From a virus (taxonomy: Duplodnaviria; Heunggongvirae; Uroviricota; Caudoviricetes): DNA of 10,220 nt. The stretch lies in IMG/VR virus record IMGVR_UViG_2706794662_000011, one strand, 5' to 3'. Within the stretch, counting starts at the first letter, position 1. Each line of letters begins with the position of its first letter. The position numbers and the translations under genes were made by a program. The notes beneath the pieces are model-generated. The model was not told where the DNA came from, ran no database searches, and saw only the letters and a list, made by a program, of their open reading frames with translations. This document shows, piece after piece, positions 1 to 6,997 of this stretch.

Positions 1-72
1 GGGAAAAATATCATCAGATGGCTGCTTAAAAAAAGAACAAATGGTAGTGTCCGCTATTGCCAGTACACCTCA
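1..72. repeat. Left copy of a 72-bp perfect terminal inverted repeat; its partner is 10149..10220
   Basis: The reverse complement of 10149..10220 is identical to 1..72 by direct comparison. The sequences diverge immediately inside (tccatcacc versus gttagtcag). Confidence 0.9.
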
Positions 73-271
73 TCCATCACCGAAAAAAATTGGCTTTTAC
101 ACCATTGGCGATAAAAGCATTTACCTGTATGACCTACGCCGCATGGATGAAATCATGGAGGCTCTTGATAATCGTTCGTCGATGGATTGGTGTGTTGCTG
201 TTCATGATATGAATGCAGGGTTTGATGAAAAGATTTTGTTCCCCTCATCAGTTGAAAGCACTGCGGGTTAA
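41..271 (+). CDS. Hypothetical protein, 76 aa from the first ATG; the reading frame stays open to the window edge, so the true start may lie upstream
   Basis: ORF from the track; no in-frame stop between position 2 and 41. Stop TAA at 269..271 is followed by AGGAG and the ATG at 282, which suggests translational coupling. The N-terminus is encoded inside the terminal inverted repeat. Confidence 0.4.
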   Translation: MVVSAIASTPHPSPKKIGFYTIGDKSIYLYDLRRMDEIMEALDNRSSMDWCVAVHDMNAGFDEKILFPSSVESTAG

Positions 272-281
272 GGAGTAACAC

Positions 282-449
282 ATGACCACTATTACCAAAG
301 AACGTATTGAATTGTTCATTAAAAACCCGCTTGAAAACGGGCTTACCCGTGGTGAACAAATGGAACTGGCACGGATTGCGCTGGCATCGCTGGAAGCAGA
401 GCCGGTTGTGTTCTGGTTTGAAAAATATCAAGAAGGGGCTACGGCATGA
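282..449 (+). CDS. Small hypothetical protein, 55 aa ([55 protein letters not shown])
   Basis: Below the ORF-track size cutoff, translated by hand. AGGAG lies 6 nt upstream. Its stop overlaps the next start (ATGA at 446..449). Shares the motif IAL-SL-AEP with the next ORF. Confidence 0.45.
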
Positions 450-790
450 CGACTTTTACCAGAGAGCAGTTAATAGCTCACGCAGAGGAGACTATTGAAG
501 CACAGAGACTGTGCATACCGGGCACAATCGACCATGACATCATCCGCACATATAAGATGGATATTGCTGTTCTGGAAATCGCACTGGTATCGCTGGCAGC
601 AGAGCCAGCCGGTAAATTGCATGAATACAAACCAGTGGGATATCAGCGTCTGGTCGATGAGTTAACCATGCTGGTAAAGCAGTTAACCTGGCAACTGAGA
701 AAAGCGAAGCCAGACTGCAAATTACCGGATAAGGCGATGAGTTATCTGGAGCGGAACGGACTGATAAGCGTGGAGGATATTTTACGATGA
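446..790 (+). CDS. Hypothetical prophage protein, 114 aa, paralogous to the preceding small ORF
   Basis: ORF from the track. ATGA overlap with the upstream ORF and with the downstream 27-aa ORF. Shared motifs are MTT-T-E and EIAL-SLAAEP. Confidence 0.5.
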
Positions 791-870
791 CCTGGCCTGA
801 AGCATTAACAACGGTAGGAATTGCGATGGCGGTGGCGCTGGTGGTGTATTCGATTTGCCGCTGGGGATAA
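787..870 (+). CDS. Candidate 27-aa hydrophobic membrane peptide ([27 protein letters not shown])
   Basis: ATG at 787 overlaps the stop of the upstream ORF (ATGA). One predicted transmembrane-like hydrophobic stretch. Hand translation, too short for the ORF track. Confidence 0.25.
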
Positions 871-911
871 AAACGGTTTGCGGGAAAAGGAGAGTTAAGT
901 AGAATTGCAGC

Positions 912-1081
912 GGGTGCTTGAGGCTATCTGTCTCAGGCATGAACACCAAAAGGCAGATAGAGAAAAGCCCCAGTTAACATTACGCGTCCGGCAAGACGCT
1001 TAACATTAATCTGAGGCTCAATCTATGAACGGCAAATCTAGGTTAGCCTCTTACGTGCCGAAAGGCAAGGAGAAGCAGGCT
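912..1081 (+). promoter_or_regulatory. hok mRNA 5' leader: a 5' element complementary to the 3' fold-back element, plus the mok-like start region that Sok would target
   Basis: gggtgcttgagg at 912..923 is complementary to cctcaatgcaccc at 1287..1299, which is the long-range 5'-3' pairing typical of hok-family mRNAs. The leader resembles the plasmid R1 hok leader (gcttgaggct and the aggagaag-N-ATGAA start region). Confidence 0.5.
955..1045 (-). ncRNA. Putative Sok-like antisense RNA; coordinates are approximate
   Basis: Inferred from the hok/sok family layout, where the antisense RNA covers the mok-like start region (in-frame ATG at 1025). Neither the promoter nor the 3' end was located. Confidence 0.3.
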
Positions 1082-1237
1082 ATGAAGCAGCAAAAGGCGA
1101 TGTTAATCGCCCTGATCGTCATCTGTTTAACCGTCATAGTGACGGCACTGGTAACGAGGAAAGACCTCTGCGAGGTACGAATTCGAACCGGCCAGACGGA
1201 GGTCGCTGTCTTCACAGCTTACGAACCTGAGGAGTAA
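1082..1237 (+). CDS. hokD: Hok/Gef family type I toxin, 51 aa (MKQQKAMLIALIVICLTVIVTALVTRKDLCEVRIRTGQTEVAVFTAYEPEE). An in-frame upstream ATG at 1025 would give a 70-aa mok-like extension.
   Basis: The sequence matches my recollection of HokD/RelF: a transmembrane helix followed by the conserved C-E-hydrophobic-R motif. The flanking mRNA has hok-type leader and 3' elements. Confidence 0.85.
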   Translation: MKQQKAMLIALIVICLTVIVTALVTRKDLCEVRIRTGQTEVAVFTAYEPEE

Positions 1238-1305
1238 GAGACCAGGCGGGGGAGAAATCCCTCGCCACCTCTGATGGGTCAGGCATCCTCAATGCACCCA
1301 CACTT

Positions 1306-1333
1306 AACCCGCTTCGGCGGGTTTTTGTTTTTA
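1306..1333 (+). terminator. Intrinsic terminator at the 3' end of the hok mRNA
   Basis: Stem aacccgc, loop ttcg, stem gcgggtt, followed by tttttgttttt. Confidence 0.65.
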
Positions 1334-1457
1334 TTTTCAACGCGTTTGAAGTTTTAGATGGTGCCGGAATAGAATCAAAAATACTTAAGTAGCGCGCAGG
1401 GAGAAGAGGGATGGACCCCGAACAGGGGAGTGCTATTTATCTGGAAGGATTCTGTTG

Positions 1458-1718
1458 ATGAAAATCGAAGAATTACGTGAAATTTTTAGTGAAGATGGCC
1501 TCTATACTGTGCGCGTTGAGAATGGCGCTATTGTCAGCCACTGCCGTATTAAATGTTTACAGTCTCAACAAAGGAAGAGTGGAGCTGCGTTAATTCATTT
1601 TGTGGATGGGCTTGTGACGGATGGTTTTATTTCGCGTGCAAATGAATTTGTCACATCGTTGCCGTCTCTGAAAGAAGCTGGGATTAAGGCTGGTTTTTCT
1701 GCTTTTGAAGATGAGTGA
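1458..1718 (+). CDS. Small hypothetical protein, 86 aa, likely Rem-like by position (hokD, rem, ydfU, Q order as in the Qin prophage)
   Basis: ORF from the track with the ATG at 1458 preferred over TTG at 1455. GGAAGGA lies 8 nt upstream. Assignment is by synteny only. Confidence 0.5.
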   Translation: MKIEELREIFSEDGLYTVRVENGAIVSHCRIKCLQSQQRKSGAALIHFVDGLVTDGFISRANEFVTSLPSLKEAGIKAGFSAFEDE

Positions 1719-1784
1719 ATTCATCTACAATTCAGCGCAGGGCTGAACCCCTGTTGAGTAACACTGTGCCACCGGAGAAAGCCG

Positions 1785-2063
1785 ATGGCGCAAAATTCCA
1801 GACTACACAATTCTGATAATTCAGCCGTCTTTGCCAGCAGGCACGGGCGGCGCTCTCACGCATTTAAATCTGATTGGTACCAGCATCCCCCATGCACTGA
1901 AGAACAGGCCGAATGGCTCATTCAGTGTTACCGCAGGCGCGGATGCGAGGTTAAAAAAGCCCTTAGCCTCGACTACCGTCACTGGATAATCTCCGTCAGG
2001 CTCCCTTACTCCGAACGGCCAACGCGTCCGTCCCGCACATTCCAGCAACGGATCTGGAGGTAA
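1785..2063 (+). CDS. Hypothetical Arg-rich protein, 92 aa
   Basis: GGAG lies 6 nt upstream of the ATG. The stop sits next to the RBS and GTG start of the following gene. The overlapping minus-strand ORF 1821..2246 is taken as spurious. Confidence 0.45.
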   Translation: MAQNSRLHNSDNSAVFASRHGRRSHAFKSDWYQHPPCTEEQAEWLIQCYRRRGCEVKKALSLDYRHWIISVRLPYSERPTRPSRTFQQRIWR

Positions 2064-2064
2064 T

Positions 2065-3123
2065 GTGCGGGTATTACTTCGACCTGTTCTGGTACCGGAA
2101 CTCGGTCTGGTTATCGTTAAGCCAGGCCGTGAATCAATGTCAGCATTCCATAACGGCAGAATACTGGTGGAGCCGGAACCAAAAAGCATGCGTAATCTGC
2201 CGTCCGGGGTCGTTCCTGCCGCTCGCCAGCCGCTGGTGGAAGACAAAACATTGCTGCCGTTTTTCAGTAACGCACGGGTGATTCGTGCTGCTGGTGGTGC
2301 TGGTGCATTGTCTGACTGGCTGTTGCGCCATATTAAATCCTGCCAGTGGCCACACGGCGATTATCATCACAGCGAAACCGTCATTCACCGTTATGGTACC
2401 GGCGCAATGGTGTTGTGCTGGCACTGCGACAACCAGCTGCGTGACCAGACATCCGAATCACTCGAGCAACTTGCTCATCAAAACCTGTCAGCATGGATGA
2501 TTGACGTCATCGGTCACGCAATAAGCGGTACGCAGGAGCGTGAATTATCTCTGGCTGAATTATCCTGGTGGGCGGTCCGCAATCAGGTGGCGGACGCGCT
2601 ACCGGAAGCGGTATTACGTCGTTCGCTGGGGTTGCGTGCGGAAAAAATTCGCTCTGTGTACAGTGAAAGCGACATCATACCGGGAGAGCAGACAGCCACC
2701 AGCATACTGAAGCAGCGCACAAAAAATATTGCGTTACTGCCTCACGTCCACCAGCAACAGAACCCACCACAGGAAAAGACGGTGGTCAGCATTGCCGTTG
2801 ATCCGGAGTCACCGGCTCAGTATCTCCAGCGCCAGAAATCACAACGGGAAGAGATGCCTGTATACACGCGCTGGGTAAAAACGCAGAAATGCATGACGTG
2901 TGGCAATCAGGCAGATGATCCGCATCACATCATTGGTCATGGACTGGGAGGGATGGGAACAAAGGCTGATGATTTGTTTGTTATTCCGTTATGCCGTAAA
3001 TGCCGTAACGAACTACATGCCGGAGTAAAAGATTTTGAAGAGAAACACGGCAGTCAGCTGTTGTTGCTGATTCGTTTTTTAATGCACGCGAGAAATTCGG
3101 GTGTTCTGAAGTGGAAAGCATAA
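2065..3123 (+). CDS. ydfU: DUF968 family prophage protein (YdfU-like), 352 aa, with a C-terminal HNH/zinc-ribbon-like motif (CMTCGNQADDPHHIIGHGLGG...LCRKCRNELH)
   Basis: GTG start preceded by GGAGG. Its position just upstream of rusA and Q matches the lambdoid nin region. The Cys/His motif was read directly from the translation. Confidence 0.7.
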   Translation: MRVLLRPVLVPELGLVIVKPGRESMSAFHNGRILVEPEPKSMRNLPSGVVPAARQPLVEDKTLLPFFSNARVIRAAGGAGALSDWLLRHIKSCQWPHGDYHHSETVIHRYGTGAMVLCWHCDNQLRDQTSESLEQLAHQNLSAWMIDVIGHAISGTQERELSLAELSWWAVRNQVADALPEAVLRRSLGLRAEKIRSVYSESDIIPGEQTATSILKQRTKNIALLPHVHQQQNPPQEKTVVSIAVDPESPAQYLQRQKSQREEMPVYTRWVKTQKCMTCGNQADDPHHIIGHGLGGMGTKADDLFVIPLCRKCRNELHAGVKDFEEKHGSQLLLLIRFLMHARNSGVLKWKA

Positions 3124-3504
3124 ATGACCGAGCGCATAGAATTTGTTTTACCTTACCCGCCGACGGTGAACACTTACTGGCGTCGTCGTGGCAGCACATA
3201 TTTTGTATCAAAAGCCGGGGAGCGTTATCGCCGGGCAGTGGCGCTTATTGTTCGCCAGCAGCGGCTGAAATTAAGCCTGTCCGGAAGGTTGGCAATAAAA
3301 ATTATTGCAGAACCACCGGATAAGCGCCGCCGTGACCTGGACAATATTCTGAAAGCGCCGCTGGATGCGCTGACGCATGCGGGGTTGCTAATGGACGATG
3401 AGCAGTTTGATGAAATCAATATCGTTCGTGCTCAGCCAGTATCTGGTGGACGTCTGGGGGTGAAGATTTATCCCATAATGCTTGAAGGGCAGGTCAAAAA
3501 ATGA
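3124..3504 (+). CDS. rusA: RusA-family Holliday junction resolvase, 126 aa
   Basis: Motifs LPYPPTVNTYWRRRG and DKRRRDLDNILKAPLDALTHAGLLMDDEQ match the RusA family (catalytic acidic cluster). The ATG abuts the ydfU stop, and the position just before Q is canonical. Confidence 0.85.
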   Translation: MTERIEFVLPYPPTVNTYWRRRGSTYFVSKAGERYRRAVALIVRQQRLKLSLSGRLAIKIIAEPPDKRRRDLDNILKAPLDALTHAGLLMDDEQFDEINIVRAQPVSGGRLGVKIYPIMLEGQVKK

Positions 3505-4322
3505 AACTGGAAGATTTACCGAAATACTACTCCCCAAAATCCCCCGGCCTGACTGATGCATCGGCCTCAACGTCGAAAGATGCGCTGAGTATCACTGATG
3601 TGATGGCCGCGCAGGGCATGACACAGAATCGGGCTGAGATGGGGGTTTCTGCGTTCCTTGGGAAAATGGGCATTAGTATGAATGACAGAGAGCGGGCAAC
3701 AGAATTGCTGACAGAATATGCACTCAGTCGGTGTGATCGCGTGGCGGCGTTAAGAAAACTCCCGGCAGAAATAAAACCGGCAGTGATGCGTATTATGGCT
3801 TCGTATGCGTTTGAAGATTATGCCCGTAGCGCGGCGAGCAAAAAACAGTGCCCCTGCTGTCACGGAAAAAAATTTATTGAAAGCGAGGTTTTTACAAACA
3901 AGATCCAGTATCCGGATGGTAAGCCGCCGGTATGGGCAAAGTGTACGAAAGGTGTGTATCCGTCTTACTGGGAAGAATGGAAAAAAGTCAGGGAGGTGGT
4001 AAAAGTTGCCTGTCCGGAGTGTGGCGGAAAGGGTGAGGTTTCCACCGCCTGTAAGGATTGCCGTGGGCGTGGTGTCGCCATTCATCGTGAAGAGTCGGTA
4101 AAACGTGGTATGCCTGTTATCAGAGACTGCCAGCGTTGTGGTGGTCGTGGCTATGAAAGACTACCATCAACGGAGGCATTTAATGCTATATGCGAGGTGA
4201 CAAACCAGATAACACGCGCGTCATGGGAAAAAACAGTTAAGAAATTTTATGATGCGCTGGTGACCCGGTTTGATATTGAAGAAGCATGGGCTGAGCGGCA
4301 GTTAAAAAAGGTAACTAGGTAA
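3501..4322 (+). CDS. Late-gene antiterminator Q-like protein (phage 82/QuuQ type), 273 aa, with four CxxCxGxG zinc-finger repeats
   Basis: ATGA overlap with rusA. Lies directly upstream of a candidate promoter plus terminator. Repeats are CPCCHG, CPECGGKG, CKDCRGRG and CQRCGGRG. Confidence 0.6.
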   Translation: MKLEDLPKYYSPKSPGLTDASASTSKDALSITDVMAAQGMTQNRAEMGVSAFLGKMGISMNDRERATELLTEYALSRCDRVAALRKLPAEIKPAVMRIMASYAFEDYARSAASKKQCPCCHGKKFIESEVFTNKIQYPDGKPPVWAKCTKGVYPSYWEEWKKVREVVKVACPECGGKGEVSTACKDCRGRGVAIHREESVKRGMPVIRDCQRCGGRGYERLPSTEAFNAICEVTNQITRASWEKTVKKFYDALVTRFDIEEAWAERQLKKVTR

Positions 4323-5961: not shown

Positions 5962-6037
5962 GGCCCTTTAGCTCAGTGGTGAGAGCGAGCGACTCATAAT
6001 CGCCAGGTCGCTGGTTCAAATCCAGCAAGGGCCACCA
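5962..6037 (+). tRNA. tRNA with anticodon CAU, 76 nt, with encoded CCA; likely a prophage Ile2 (lysidine) tRNA, Met not excluded
   Basis: Acceptor stem ggccctt pairs with aagggcc. D-arm gctcagtggtgagagc. Anticodon loop ctcataa. T-arm gctgg-ttcaaat-ccagc. Discriminator A, then CCA. One A-C mismatch at the top of the anticodon stem. Confidence 0.85.
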
Positions 6038-6078: not shown

Positions 6079-6356
6079 NNNNNNNNNNNNNNNNNNNNNN
6101 NNNNNNNNNNNNNNNNNNNNNNNNNNNNNNNNNNNNNNNNNNNNNNNNNNNNNNNNNNNNNNNNNNNNNNNNNNNNNNNNNNNNNNNNNNNNNNNNNNNN
6201 NNNNNNNNNNNNNNNNNNNNNNNNNNNNNNNNNNNNNNNNNNNNNNNNNNNNNNNNNNNNNNNNNNNNNNNNNNNNNNNNNNNNNNNNNNNNNNNNNNNN
6301 NNNNNNNNNNNNNNNNNNNNNNNNNNNNNNNNNNNNNNNNNNNNNNNNNNNNNNNN
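6079..6356. other. N-masked gap (278 N)
   Basis: Run of n characters. Confidence 1.
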
Positions 6357-6504
6357 GAATCCCCCTGTGCGGAGGGGCAATCAGCGAGTAGGTATATGGG
6401 ATAATCGCGGATTCAGGTGCTGGTACTGAATTCACCGGGAGGCACCCGGCATCATGCAATGGCACATAGCGCCACTCTCCAGCCCTCTCCGGAGGGGCTT
6501 TTCT
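6357..6504 (+). ncRNA. Copy A of a structured ~150-nt repeat element ending in an intrinsic terminator; candidate small RNA
   Basis: Begins gaatccccctgtgcggaggggc at the gap edge. Middle hairpin ccggg-aggca-cccgg at 6435..6449. Terminator ccctc-tccg-gaggg plus ttttc at 6483..6504. No ORF of 60 aa or more. Confidence 0.35.
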
Positions 6505-6693
6505 GTGCCGGATACATCACAGTTTCTGGAACCTTAGGTACTACAGTATCAGTCAGGGTGCTATATTTTCAGATGTGATGAAAGCCTGTCAGCAGGCAGG
6601 GCGTATCGGAAATGACCCAGTAGAGAAAACGTTGACTCAGATACCGGTGCTGAGTTACCGGGAAACCGGCATCACATGACCGCTATCCTTCCA

Positions 6694-6721: not shown

Positions 6722-6823
6722 CTGCAGAAAACAGGTTCCCCGTTAAATGCTATGTTGCTCACAATTCAGTAAGTTGACAGTTGCCTGTCAGACTGGGCAT
6801 TTGTTAAAAAAATTTCGCATGGT

Positions 6824-6990
6824 GAATCCCCCTGAGCGGAGGGGCGACTGGTGACGGTATAATCTCTGATTATCAAAACGAGAATGACGCGGGTTTAGTG
6901 GCACCGGGCTGAACTCACCGGGAGGCACCCGGCACCATGTGCATGATGATACAGATACGCGGCTTTAGCCCCTCTCCGGAGGGGTTTTCT
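6824..6990 (+). ncRNA. Copy B of the structured repeat element; candidate small RNA
   Basis: Begins gaatccccctgagcggaggggc. Perfect TATAAT at 6858..6863. Shares with copy A the block tcaccgggaggcacccggca-catg and a terminator (cccctc-tccg-gagggg plus tttt at 6969..6988). Confidence 0.35.
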
Positions 6991-6997
6991 TGTGGGC

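Follow-up and report, generated by a model that had tools for sequence, protein, structure and literature searches.

The window analyzed here is a stretch of 10,220 nucleotides (nt) from IMG/VR virus record IMGVR_UViG_2706794662_000011, and it represents the nin region (the rightward delayed-early operon) of a Qin/PPompW-like lambdoid prophage of Escherichia coli. Between positions 282 and 1333 it carries a string of small open reading frames (ORFs) that runs into a complete hok/sok locus, and no terminator was found between the two. A first-pass annotation, made from the sequence alone, had described three ORFs of 55, 114 and 27 amino acids (aa) in this string as chained by ATGA overlaps. Their coordinates proved exact, with overlaps at 446-449 and 787-790, and a Shine-Dalgarno (SD) sequence can be read ahead of each of them. 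The features are collected in Table 1. We interpret the region, with a probability that we put at roughly 0.85, as a string of translationally coupled genes of the ea type that ends in an independent micropeptide gene and is followed by a self-contained hok/mok/sok module, all within the nin operon. A hok/sok locus with an in-frame mok is already known, and the ea-type ORFs are of an ordinary kind. What is new here is the 27-aa gene, which on the sequence comparisons below appears to be a real, widespread and essentially uncatalogued micropeptide.

The first-pass annotation had allowed that the small ORFs might be chance frames; for the 27-aa ORF this is contradicted by its conservation across phage contexts and by the signature of purifying selection. 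It was found by tblastn in 91 phage records and by blastn in 1634 of 5426 complete E. coli genomes (~30%), where it occupies 3107 places, 163 of them on plasmids. The DNA recurs at 75-100% identity in phages with unrelated flanks, with a length of 27 codons throughout the copies in phage records, and in these records the start sits at the stop of differing upstream genes (Ea22-like, EaA, DUF551, L0139). The sequence GGAGGTG lies a few bases upstream at all phage-record junctions except those of the window type, and 17 further phage loci repeat the ATGA/SD arrangement. A degenerate N-terminal pattern retrieved at least 120 loci from IMG/VR, and all 120 listed encode a hydrophobic ORF of 19-30 aa starting with M-x-W-P-[E/D]-A. 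Among these listed matches, the ORFs of 19 and 20 aa derive from 27-aa members by shortening (one is cut by the end of its contig), an SD occupies the corresponding position in 118 of the 120 copies, and 90 of the 120 overlap through ATGA an upstream ORF of at least 50 codons. The family pattern can be written as MxWP[ED]A[FLI]xx[VLM]G, followed by a membrane helix and (R)WG. Distant relatives of 22-30 aa keep M1, W3, P4, A6, G11 and the helix despite diverged DNA.

When the copies were reduced to unique nucleotide versions, 51 versions were found to encode 30 peptides, and the entropy summed by codon position was 9.1, 6.5 and 19.5 for the first, second and third positions. The median ratio of nonsynonymous to synonymous polymorphism (pN/pS) was 0.38 in the micropeptide frame versus 1.12 and 1.39 in the two shifted frames, and 360 of 694 divergent pairs showed a significant synonymous excess. 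Since third positions carry most of the entropy and pN/pS is low only in the real frame, these data point to selection on the sequence of the peptide and not just on the act of translating it, and by this measure the ORF behaves as a genuine gene. The product is predicted to be a single-pass membrane peptide (mean Kyte-Doolittle hydropathy of 2.16 over residues 6-24), and its acidic N-terminus and C-terminal Arg suggest an N-out, C-in topology.

The micropeptide matched no family in Pfam, PHROG or NCBIfam, the sole hit being to DUF883_C below threshold (14.5 bits against a cutoff of 27), and no Rfam family matched 787-870. The Prokaryotic Genome Annotation Pipeline (PGAP) leaves the ORF uncalled, and a few GenBank records list the exact peptides as 'hypothetical', 'prophage' or 'bacteriophage' protein. 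No mention of the peptide strings was found in the searchable literature or in the supplements of the Sakai RIBO-seq small-gene paper. Because the gene occurs in Shiga toxin (Stx) phages among others and goes uncalled in RefSeq/PGAP and in almost all phage records, it offers a cheap and well-defined target for small-protein work. A species-wide scan, in which a degenerate DNA pattern was run over a one-genome-per-species set of 596 Gb, gave 93 hits, most of them chance matches. After translation, the hits that were left came from E. coli and Shigella, apart from two tiny contigs, probably contaminants, and a Photorhabdus look-alike of 22 aa. The look-alike, on contigs of Photorhabdus temperata and P. 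viridis (L024:2750, L027, L043), reads MIWPDAVVTMGW(I/L)(S/L)IIFRLR(R/L)H, has a GGGGGA SD and an ATGA overlap, and resembles the N-terminus of the family (MSWPDAIVTLG...). It may be a distant relative outside Escherichia.

We also considered whether a DUF551 gene had been split or frameshifted, so that the micropeptide would be its C-terminal anchor. This was rejected: the co-clustered DUF551 proteins (121-185 aa) end in ...PEPPQEVNQ without the peptide, and no slippery heptamer was seen at either type of junction. A 45-aa upstream-extended query retrieved only three tiny protein matches and no long fusion proteins. The 27-aa peptides are grouped in 90%-identity clusters whose representatives are DUF551 proteins of 121-185 aa, and PGAP labels contig-edge fragments of the micropeptide frame (25-31 aa) as 'DUF551 domain-containing protein, partial'. 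Both look like artefacts of clustering and annotation that hide the micropeptide.

Table 1. Observed and predicted features of the small-gene string and the hok/sok locus, in window coordinates
Feature	Position	Strand	Basis and remarks
76-aa phage ORF, previous gene in the rightward operon	41..271	+	ORF list; phrog_1714, E = 5e-37
55-aa ORF, almost only Ea22/EaA/DUF551-type N-terminal module	282..449	+	phrog_3323 1e-19, phrog_60 4e-18; AAGGAG SD at 270-275
114-aa ORF, Ea22/EaA/DUF551-type N-terminal module plus phrog_660-type C-terminus	446..790	+	phrog_660 8e-43; WP_000206826.1 (PGAP: hypothetical)
SD GGAGGA of the 27-aa ORF	772..777	+	Read from sequence, 9 nt upstream of the start
27-aa micropeptide, predicted single-pass membrane	787..870	+	Start overlaps stop of the 114-aa ORF (ATGA)
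Putative hok promoter, -35 TTTGCG/TTGCGG (877-883), -10 TAGAAT (900-905)	877..905	+	By alignment, homologous to TATAAT upstream of the K-12 hokC mRNA start
Full-length hok (mok-hok) mRNA	912..1333	+	Rfam RF01794; fold; 5' end by homology with R1 and hokC mRNAs
tac (translational activator), mRNA 5' end	912..923	+	Pairs with 1287-1299 in minimum free energy (MFE) structure and with ucb in Rfam consensus structure
Sok antisense RNA (predicted), ~71 nt: 5' single-stranded tail over mok start, long hairpin, U-run	963..1033	-	Transferred from sokW of 933W
ucb/anti-SD AGCCCC, sequesters mok SD in full-length fold	966..971	+	Pairs with 1011-1018 in MFE structure and with the SD region in centroid structure too; role by analogy to R1 (PMC9841398)
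mok SD GAGG	1013..1016	+	Read from sequence; aligns with the R1 GAGG mok SD
mok frame, 70 codons, in frame with hok, common stop	1025..1237	+	Layout as in annotated mokW and mokC
Hypervariable patch, mok codons 2-5, opposite the Sok 5' tail	1028..1039	+	Differences from 933W
Putative Sok promoter, -35 TTGCCT (1068-1063), 17-nt spacer, -10 TAACCT (1045-1040)	1040..1068	-	Aligns with R100 TTGCGC-17-TATCCT
hok toxin gene, 51 aa, HokD type	1082..1237	+	Pfam HOK_GEF PF01848, E = 3e-23; own SD AAGGAG at 1067-1072
fbi (fold-back inhibitory) element	1287..1299	+	Pairs with tac in MFE and centroid structures
hok mRNA intrinsic terminator: 7-bp GC-rich stem, GNRA-like loop, T-run	1306..1333	+	Identical in K-12 hokD

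By sequence and comparison, positions 912-1333 constitute a complete and canonical hok/mok/sok type I toxin-antitoxin (TA) locus, of a kind that is already well known. The long-range complementarity of the two mRNA ends, which the first-pass annotation had noted as a hallmark of the system, is borne out by the fold: the MFE structure pairs 912-923 (GGGUGCUUGAGG) with 1287-1299 (CCUCAAUGCACCC), and the fold of the whole element has a z-score of -6.3, none of 100 shuffled sequences folding as well (0/100). The terminal terminator that it had marked is likewise present and is intrinsic, at 1306-1323 followed by the T-run. Rfam family RF01794, a model of the hok mRNA leader that is named 'sok', aligns along its entire length (model positions 1-157 of 157) with 912-1087, scoring 112.4 bits against a gathering threshold of 59. 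The Hok protein, of a toxin family typified by a length of ~50 aa, an N-terminal membrane helix and a conserved TRK.LCE core, scores 81.6 bits against a Pfam cutoff of 22, matches phrog_251 (8e-33) and is named hokD by PGAP. The predicted Sok RNA folds with -33.2 kcal/mol (z = -5.3). The putative promoter region of hok begins 7 nt after the micropeptide stop.

Comparison with relBE-hokD and with other chromosomal hok loci, which the first-pass annotation had recommended as a check, identifies the window locus as the intact form of K-12 hokD. In the Qin prophage of K-12 (relB-relE-hokD), hokD (relF) is ~98% identical to the window at the nucleotide level from the hok SD (~1067) through hok, fbi and the terminator and for ~120 nt beyond, and both share the downstream gene order rem-ydfU-Q. 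K-12 hokD lacks the whole region ahead of the hok SD (promoter, tac, ucb, mok start, Sok promoter and RNA), its place being taken by the 3' end of relE; the window, in turn, lacks relBE. From this alignment the window appears to retain, in intact form, the locus that was cut down to K-12 hokD. The hokC locus of the K-12 chromosome (mokC/hokC/sokC, or gef) has the same tac as the window (GGGTGCTTGAGG) and the same in-frame spacing of 57 nt between mok and hok. It differs in its chromosomal, non-prophage setting adjoining IS186 and in a shorter leader without the 18-nt insert in the Sok hairpin. Plasmids R1 and R100 (parB) show the same set and order of elements as the window (tac, ucb, mok SD, mok, hok SD, hok, fbi, terminator and, as a prediction for the window, Sok); the R1 locus, on a plasmid, serves post-segregational killing. 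Their mok-hok spacing is 58 nt and out of frame versus 57 nt and in frame in the window, and Hok is ~44% identical, a figure reported for HokW against R1 Hok (PMC8621323).

The closest described relative is hokW/mokW/sokW of the Stx2 phage 933W and Sakai prophage Sp5, which is ~92% identical to window positions 787-1309, that is, from the 27-aa ORF onward. The 57-nt in-frame mok-hok spacing, a near-identical 51-aa Hok and the predicted position of Sok are all shared with 933W, in which the locus lies in the early-left/b region as opposed to the nin region of the window. The 3' terminator and the Hok C-terminus differ (...VDYESEK in 933W against ...TAYEPEE), as does the Sok-target patch (CTGAACACATGT against AACGGCAAATCT in the window, 933W being the carrier of the different allele). 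In Sp5, hokW/sokW is a working type I TA system whose toxin appears upon RecA-dependent prophage induction and which doubles phage release (PMC8621323). Within the Sok-mok leader, otherwise ~92% identical to that of 933W, positions 1028-1039 form the one concentrated block of differences, and at least 11 alleles of this patch (MNGKS, MLNTC, MLYTR, MSHKC, MTCTL and others) were counted among 47 phage hok loci. The patch probably determines the specificity of Sok/hok pairing, and its alleles look like diversified specificities that would prevent cross-talk between the copies of co-resident prophages. A TACG at 1220-1223 (UACG at Hok Tyr47, near the C-terminus) is retained, and the window hok may be edited there if that is the known site.

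Several K-12 chromosomal hok loci are evolutionary relics with no part in killing or regulation, and the window locus could be another, K-12 hokD being itself a truncated copy. In the window, though, all regulatory elements appear intact, the fold is as expected and Hok is full length with its SD; in addition, the ~92%-identical hokW/sokW is a working TA triggered on induction (PMC8621323), and diversification of the Sok-target alleles is typical of an active pairing system. We therefore consider a relic improbable. For the hok/sok part as a whole the analysis adds little beyond showing the intact ancestor of the truncated K-12 hokD and an in-frame mok as the rule in phage-borne loci.

The first-pass annotation had further suggested that the 27-aa peptide, being hydrophobic and next to a membrane toxin, could be a second small membrane toxin or a modulator of Hok. 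Together with Hok and Sok it would then form a three-part module. One subclade of the family, with peptides ending in ...YSICRWG, gives some substance to this idea: the peptide stop runs directly into an identical hok promoter sequence in the window and 933W/Sp5 as well as in 36 of the 120 IMG/VR copies (among the matches listed), and this junction is kept even where the upstream gene differs. The unit 787-1309, moreover, is common at ~92% identity to two contexts, so that peptide and hok have moved together between operons (nin in the window, early-left in 933W), and hydrophobicity is a property of type I toxins. However, those 36 were the only ones of the 120 with hok within 900 nt downstream (22 of the copies in this count had less than 900 nt of downstream sequence), and most copies are without hok nearby. 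The neighbors are instead DUF4222/xis/int genes (BP-4795, JLK-2012, and VT1-Sakai with xis/int) or a type II TA system (ArgO145), or else unrelated genes, and the peptide also occurs without hok nearby in a P1-like phage-plasmid (813R1), in rV5-like phages and in the virulent Avunavirus Av-05. Conversely, hok loci without the micropeptide are common (PPompW phages, Rac, mEp460, K-12 hokC, plasmids), and homology to the window starts only at 870 in the PPompW phages and at ~893 in mEp460 and Rac.

Nor does the peptide gene have the hallmarks of a type I toxin gene. A consensus scan of both strands found no promoter-like site in 450-900, and the ORF, with a good SD, has neither a promoter nor an antisense RNA of its own. 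Ibs, ShoB, TisB, DinQ and ZorO are small hydrophobic type I toxins, and AcrZ and MgtS are small regulatory membrane proteins; the micropeptide resembles all of these in size and in its single predicted helix. It differs from them in having a strong SD, unmasked, and operon coupling but no dedicated promoter or antisense RNA; none of the libraries searched (Pfam, PHROG, NCBIfam) revealed any sequence similarity, and to our knowledge the N-terminal motif MxWPEAF is not a feature of any of these families. Because most copies are without hok, hok loci without the peptide are common and the type I hallmarks are absent, we reject the hok-modulator reading as the main explanation, and regard a three-part module as slightly less probable even than a relic. 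The comparisons instead indicate that the micropeptide is tied to hok only in part: its gene is mobile independently of the TA system and does not belong to it. The peptide could still be membrane-active in its own right.

Another reading would give the 27-aa frame significance only as an act of translation, for example in holding ribosomes on the transcript and so preventing Rho-dependent polarity at the end of the string, with the peptide itself having no function. Its being nearly always the coupled terminal ORF of a gene string would fit, and so would its very short length, its want of a protein family match and its occasional disruption without loss of the surrounding module. Against it stand the pN/pS of 0.38 where other frames exceed 1, the five invariant residues in relatives of 22-30 aa, and the maintenance of hydrophobicity and length, and we judge it to have little probability.

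In the mok region, the first-pass annotation had pointed out an upstream ATG at 1025 in frame with hok and had taken it for a departure from the canonical mok layout. The first part holds: the ATG lies 57 nt before the hok ATG at 1082 with no stop between them, and the 70-codon frame differs from the arrangement of R1. The second part does not, since in-frame mok is the usual state: it is found 57 nt upstream in 43 of the 45 mok starts of the phage-borne hok loci that we collected, and mokC/hokC of K-12 and mokW/hokW of 933W are annotated with a common stop codon. In R100, whose hok locus we take to match the R1 parB sequence, mok starts 58 nt before the hok ATG, in the +1 frame, and encodes an unrelated 70-aa Mok. 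The nucleotide numbering of R1 (mok ATG at 116-118, hok ATG at 174-176; PMC9841398) is consistent with this 58-nt out-of-frame spacing; no explicit statement on the mok frame was found in the literature, and confirmation is thus indirect, through the numbering. The window does not have the R1-type layout, with its 58-nt spacing, +1 frame and end near the hok stop. It should be noted that plasmid pMTY1886_IncFII (L012, 544-759) and R100 (L020, 355-571) encode identical Hok proteins and differ by 1 nt in the mok leader, so that mok is in frame in the former and out of frame in the latter. Evidently, the mok frame is free to flip within the plasmid lineage too.

Given the 57-nt in-frame spacing, initiation at mok can only give a Hok of 70 aa, extended at its N-terminus. 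The view that this fusion, and not the 51-aa Hok, is the relevant toxin can therefore claim that the product is unavoidable, and also that the 19-residue extension, with five Lys/Arg and one Glu, is basic, as would suit a cytoplasmic N-terminus; but hok keeps its own conserved SD and ATG, the 51-aa HokW is toxic alone (PMC8621323), K-12 hokD retains only the SD and the 51-aa ORF, mok codons 2-5 vary freely at the protein level and so show no peptide-level constraint, and R1 needs mok translation and not the Mok product (PMC9841398), all of which makes the fusion an unlikely toxin. On the same grounds of the retained SD and ATG, the toxicity of HokW alone, the K-12 remnant and the variable codons, the N-extension would seem to be a by-product of coupling rather than a functional domain.

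Under our preferred interpretation of a coupled string followed by a self-contained hok/sok module, the ORFs at 41-271, 282-449, 446-790 and 787-870 would be translated by tight coupling, each from its SD and with a start that overlaps (ATGA) or nearly overlaps the stop before it, and the micropeptide would arise by termination-reinitiation where the upstream ea-type gene ends. With low confidence, we suggest that the peptide may serve as an accessory membrane factor early in lytic growth, affecting either a host membrane protein or the integrity of the membrane. In the adjoining locus, tac-fbi pairing would keep the full-length hok mRNA closed, and ucb would mask the mok SD. Trimming of the 3' end would free tac to pair with ucb and thereby expose the mok SD; Sok, antisense across the mok start, would block mok and so the coupled translation of hok, and loss of Sok would let the 51-aa Hok depolarize the membrane. 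This mechanism is assigned to the window by analogy, because R1 (PMC9841398) and the ~92%-identical hokW/sokW (PMC8621323) work in this way. In R1, the closed full-length mRNA is slowly trimmed at its 3' end, the pairing of tac switches to ucb and the mok SD is exposed, while Sok blocks translation and the duplex decays through RNase III (PMC9841398). In a lysogen, presumably only the hok and Sok promoters would be active, and Sok would keep Hok off. Upon induction, we hypothesize, antiterminated early transcription would read through hok against the Sok promoter; such a read-through model, if correct, would fit the loss of sokW and the induction-dependent appearance of HokW in Sp5 (PMC8621323).

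Three observations weigh against this interpretation. The hok and Sok promoters are weak consensus matches that fall below the scan threshold and were placed by homology only. Broken copies of the micropeptide gene exist, two with a TAG at codon 3 (L009 and L018) and one with a 1-nt deletion (L001), so the gene is dispensable. Finally, the chromosomal hok loci that were tested failed to mediate post-segregational killing (10.1101/2025.08.07.668861).

A broader proposal, which we offer tentatively and hold to be unlikely as a whole, although less so than any of the rival readings above, would join the two parts of the region. The MxWPEAF family would consist of phage inner-membrane effectors, made in early lytic growth and having either a specific target in the host membrane or a role in lysis timing or exclusion, and the peptide genes of the ...YSICRWG subclade would be joined with hok/sok in a co-oriented composite module. 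Early transcription, once induced (from pR here, from pL in 933W/Sp5), would continue past the hok promoter until it met the convergent Sok promoter, and this collision would lower Sok and switch on Hok. If true, the composite module would explain why HokW depends on RecA and prophage induction (PMC8621323). Whatever its function, the position of the micropeptide directly upstream of hokW in Sp5 matters for reading the phenotypes of hokW-sokW deletions and for how prophage induction turns Hok on.

The two ORFs upstream of the micropeptide are, as the first-pass annotation had proposed from a shared motif, paralogous. BLASTP aligns them over ~54 N-terminal residues (E = 1e-5), and residues 1 to ~55 of both match the same families, phrog_60, 660, 3323 and 5117. 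Neither ORF reached any Pfam model. This N-terminal module (MT.IT.ER... ending in ...IAL.SLEAEP) is also found at the N-termini of DUF551/Ea22-like proteins (e.g. P0002, L120) and is common to both ORFs and to the ead/Ea22-like, EaA and DUF551 proteins of lambdoid phages; compared with that family, the 55-aa ORF is essentially the module alone. Its product is identical to WP_000207997.1, called 'hypothetical' by PGAP and 'EaA protein' by RAST. Genes of the family usually lie in strings of overlapping small genes, as they do in the window, and such strings are the normal state of this region in related phages. The two ORFs are thus ordinary, modular members of the common ea accessory-gene superfamily.

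In nucleotide comparisons, window positions 1-2000 match lambdoid E. coli prophages and phages. The related records are annotated with replication genes, small Ea22/EaA-type ORFs, hok, rem, ydfU (DUF968), rusA, Q, tRNAs and lysis genes, in that order. In the window, the ORF at 2065-3123 is DUF968/YdfU by Pfam, and the ORFs at 3124-3504 and 3501-4322 occupy the positions annotated as RusA and Q in related records. We place the locus in the nin region because the order of the window ORFs fits this annotated order.

Some additional observations were made on the surroundings of the locus. A stretch of PP818812.1 ('Actinobacillus phage vB_Apl-pPE4'), at 13011-13649, is 96.6% identical to window positions 692-1329 (98% over 760-1010). 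It is E. coli lambdoid sequence including hok, and either the assignment of this phage to Actinobacillus pleuropneumoniae looks doubtful or the record is contaminated. Directly after the hok terminator lies a promoter-like sequence, TTGAAG-18-TAGAAT (1346-1375, + strand), which is identical in K-12 Qin downstream of hokD and might allow transcription of the downstream 87-aa ORF and of rem without read-through. This 87-aa ORF (1455-1718, + strand; phrog_340) lies between hok and rem; the hokD-rem gap of K-12 Qin, at ~216 nt, leaves no room for it, and in the MLI109 prophage no gene is annotated there. Farther downstream, a tRNA gene at 5962-6034 (+ strand; anticodon loop CUCAUAA, with a CAU anticodon of the Met/Ile2 type) is found between Q and two copies of STnc100, an Rfam family of small RNAs. 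At this place related phages carry tRNA-Met, tRNA-Thr and tRNA-Gly. The STnc100 copies, at 6328-6510 and 6788-6997 (both + strand; 70 and 161 bits), lie downstream of Q and the tRNA and ahead of a large ORF at 7220-9073.

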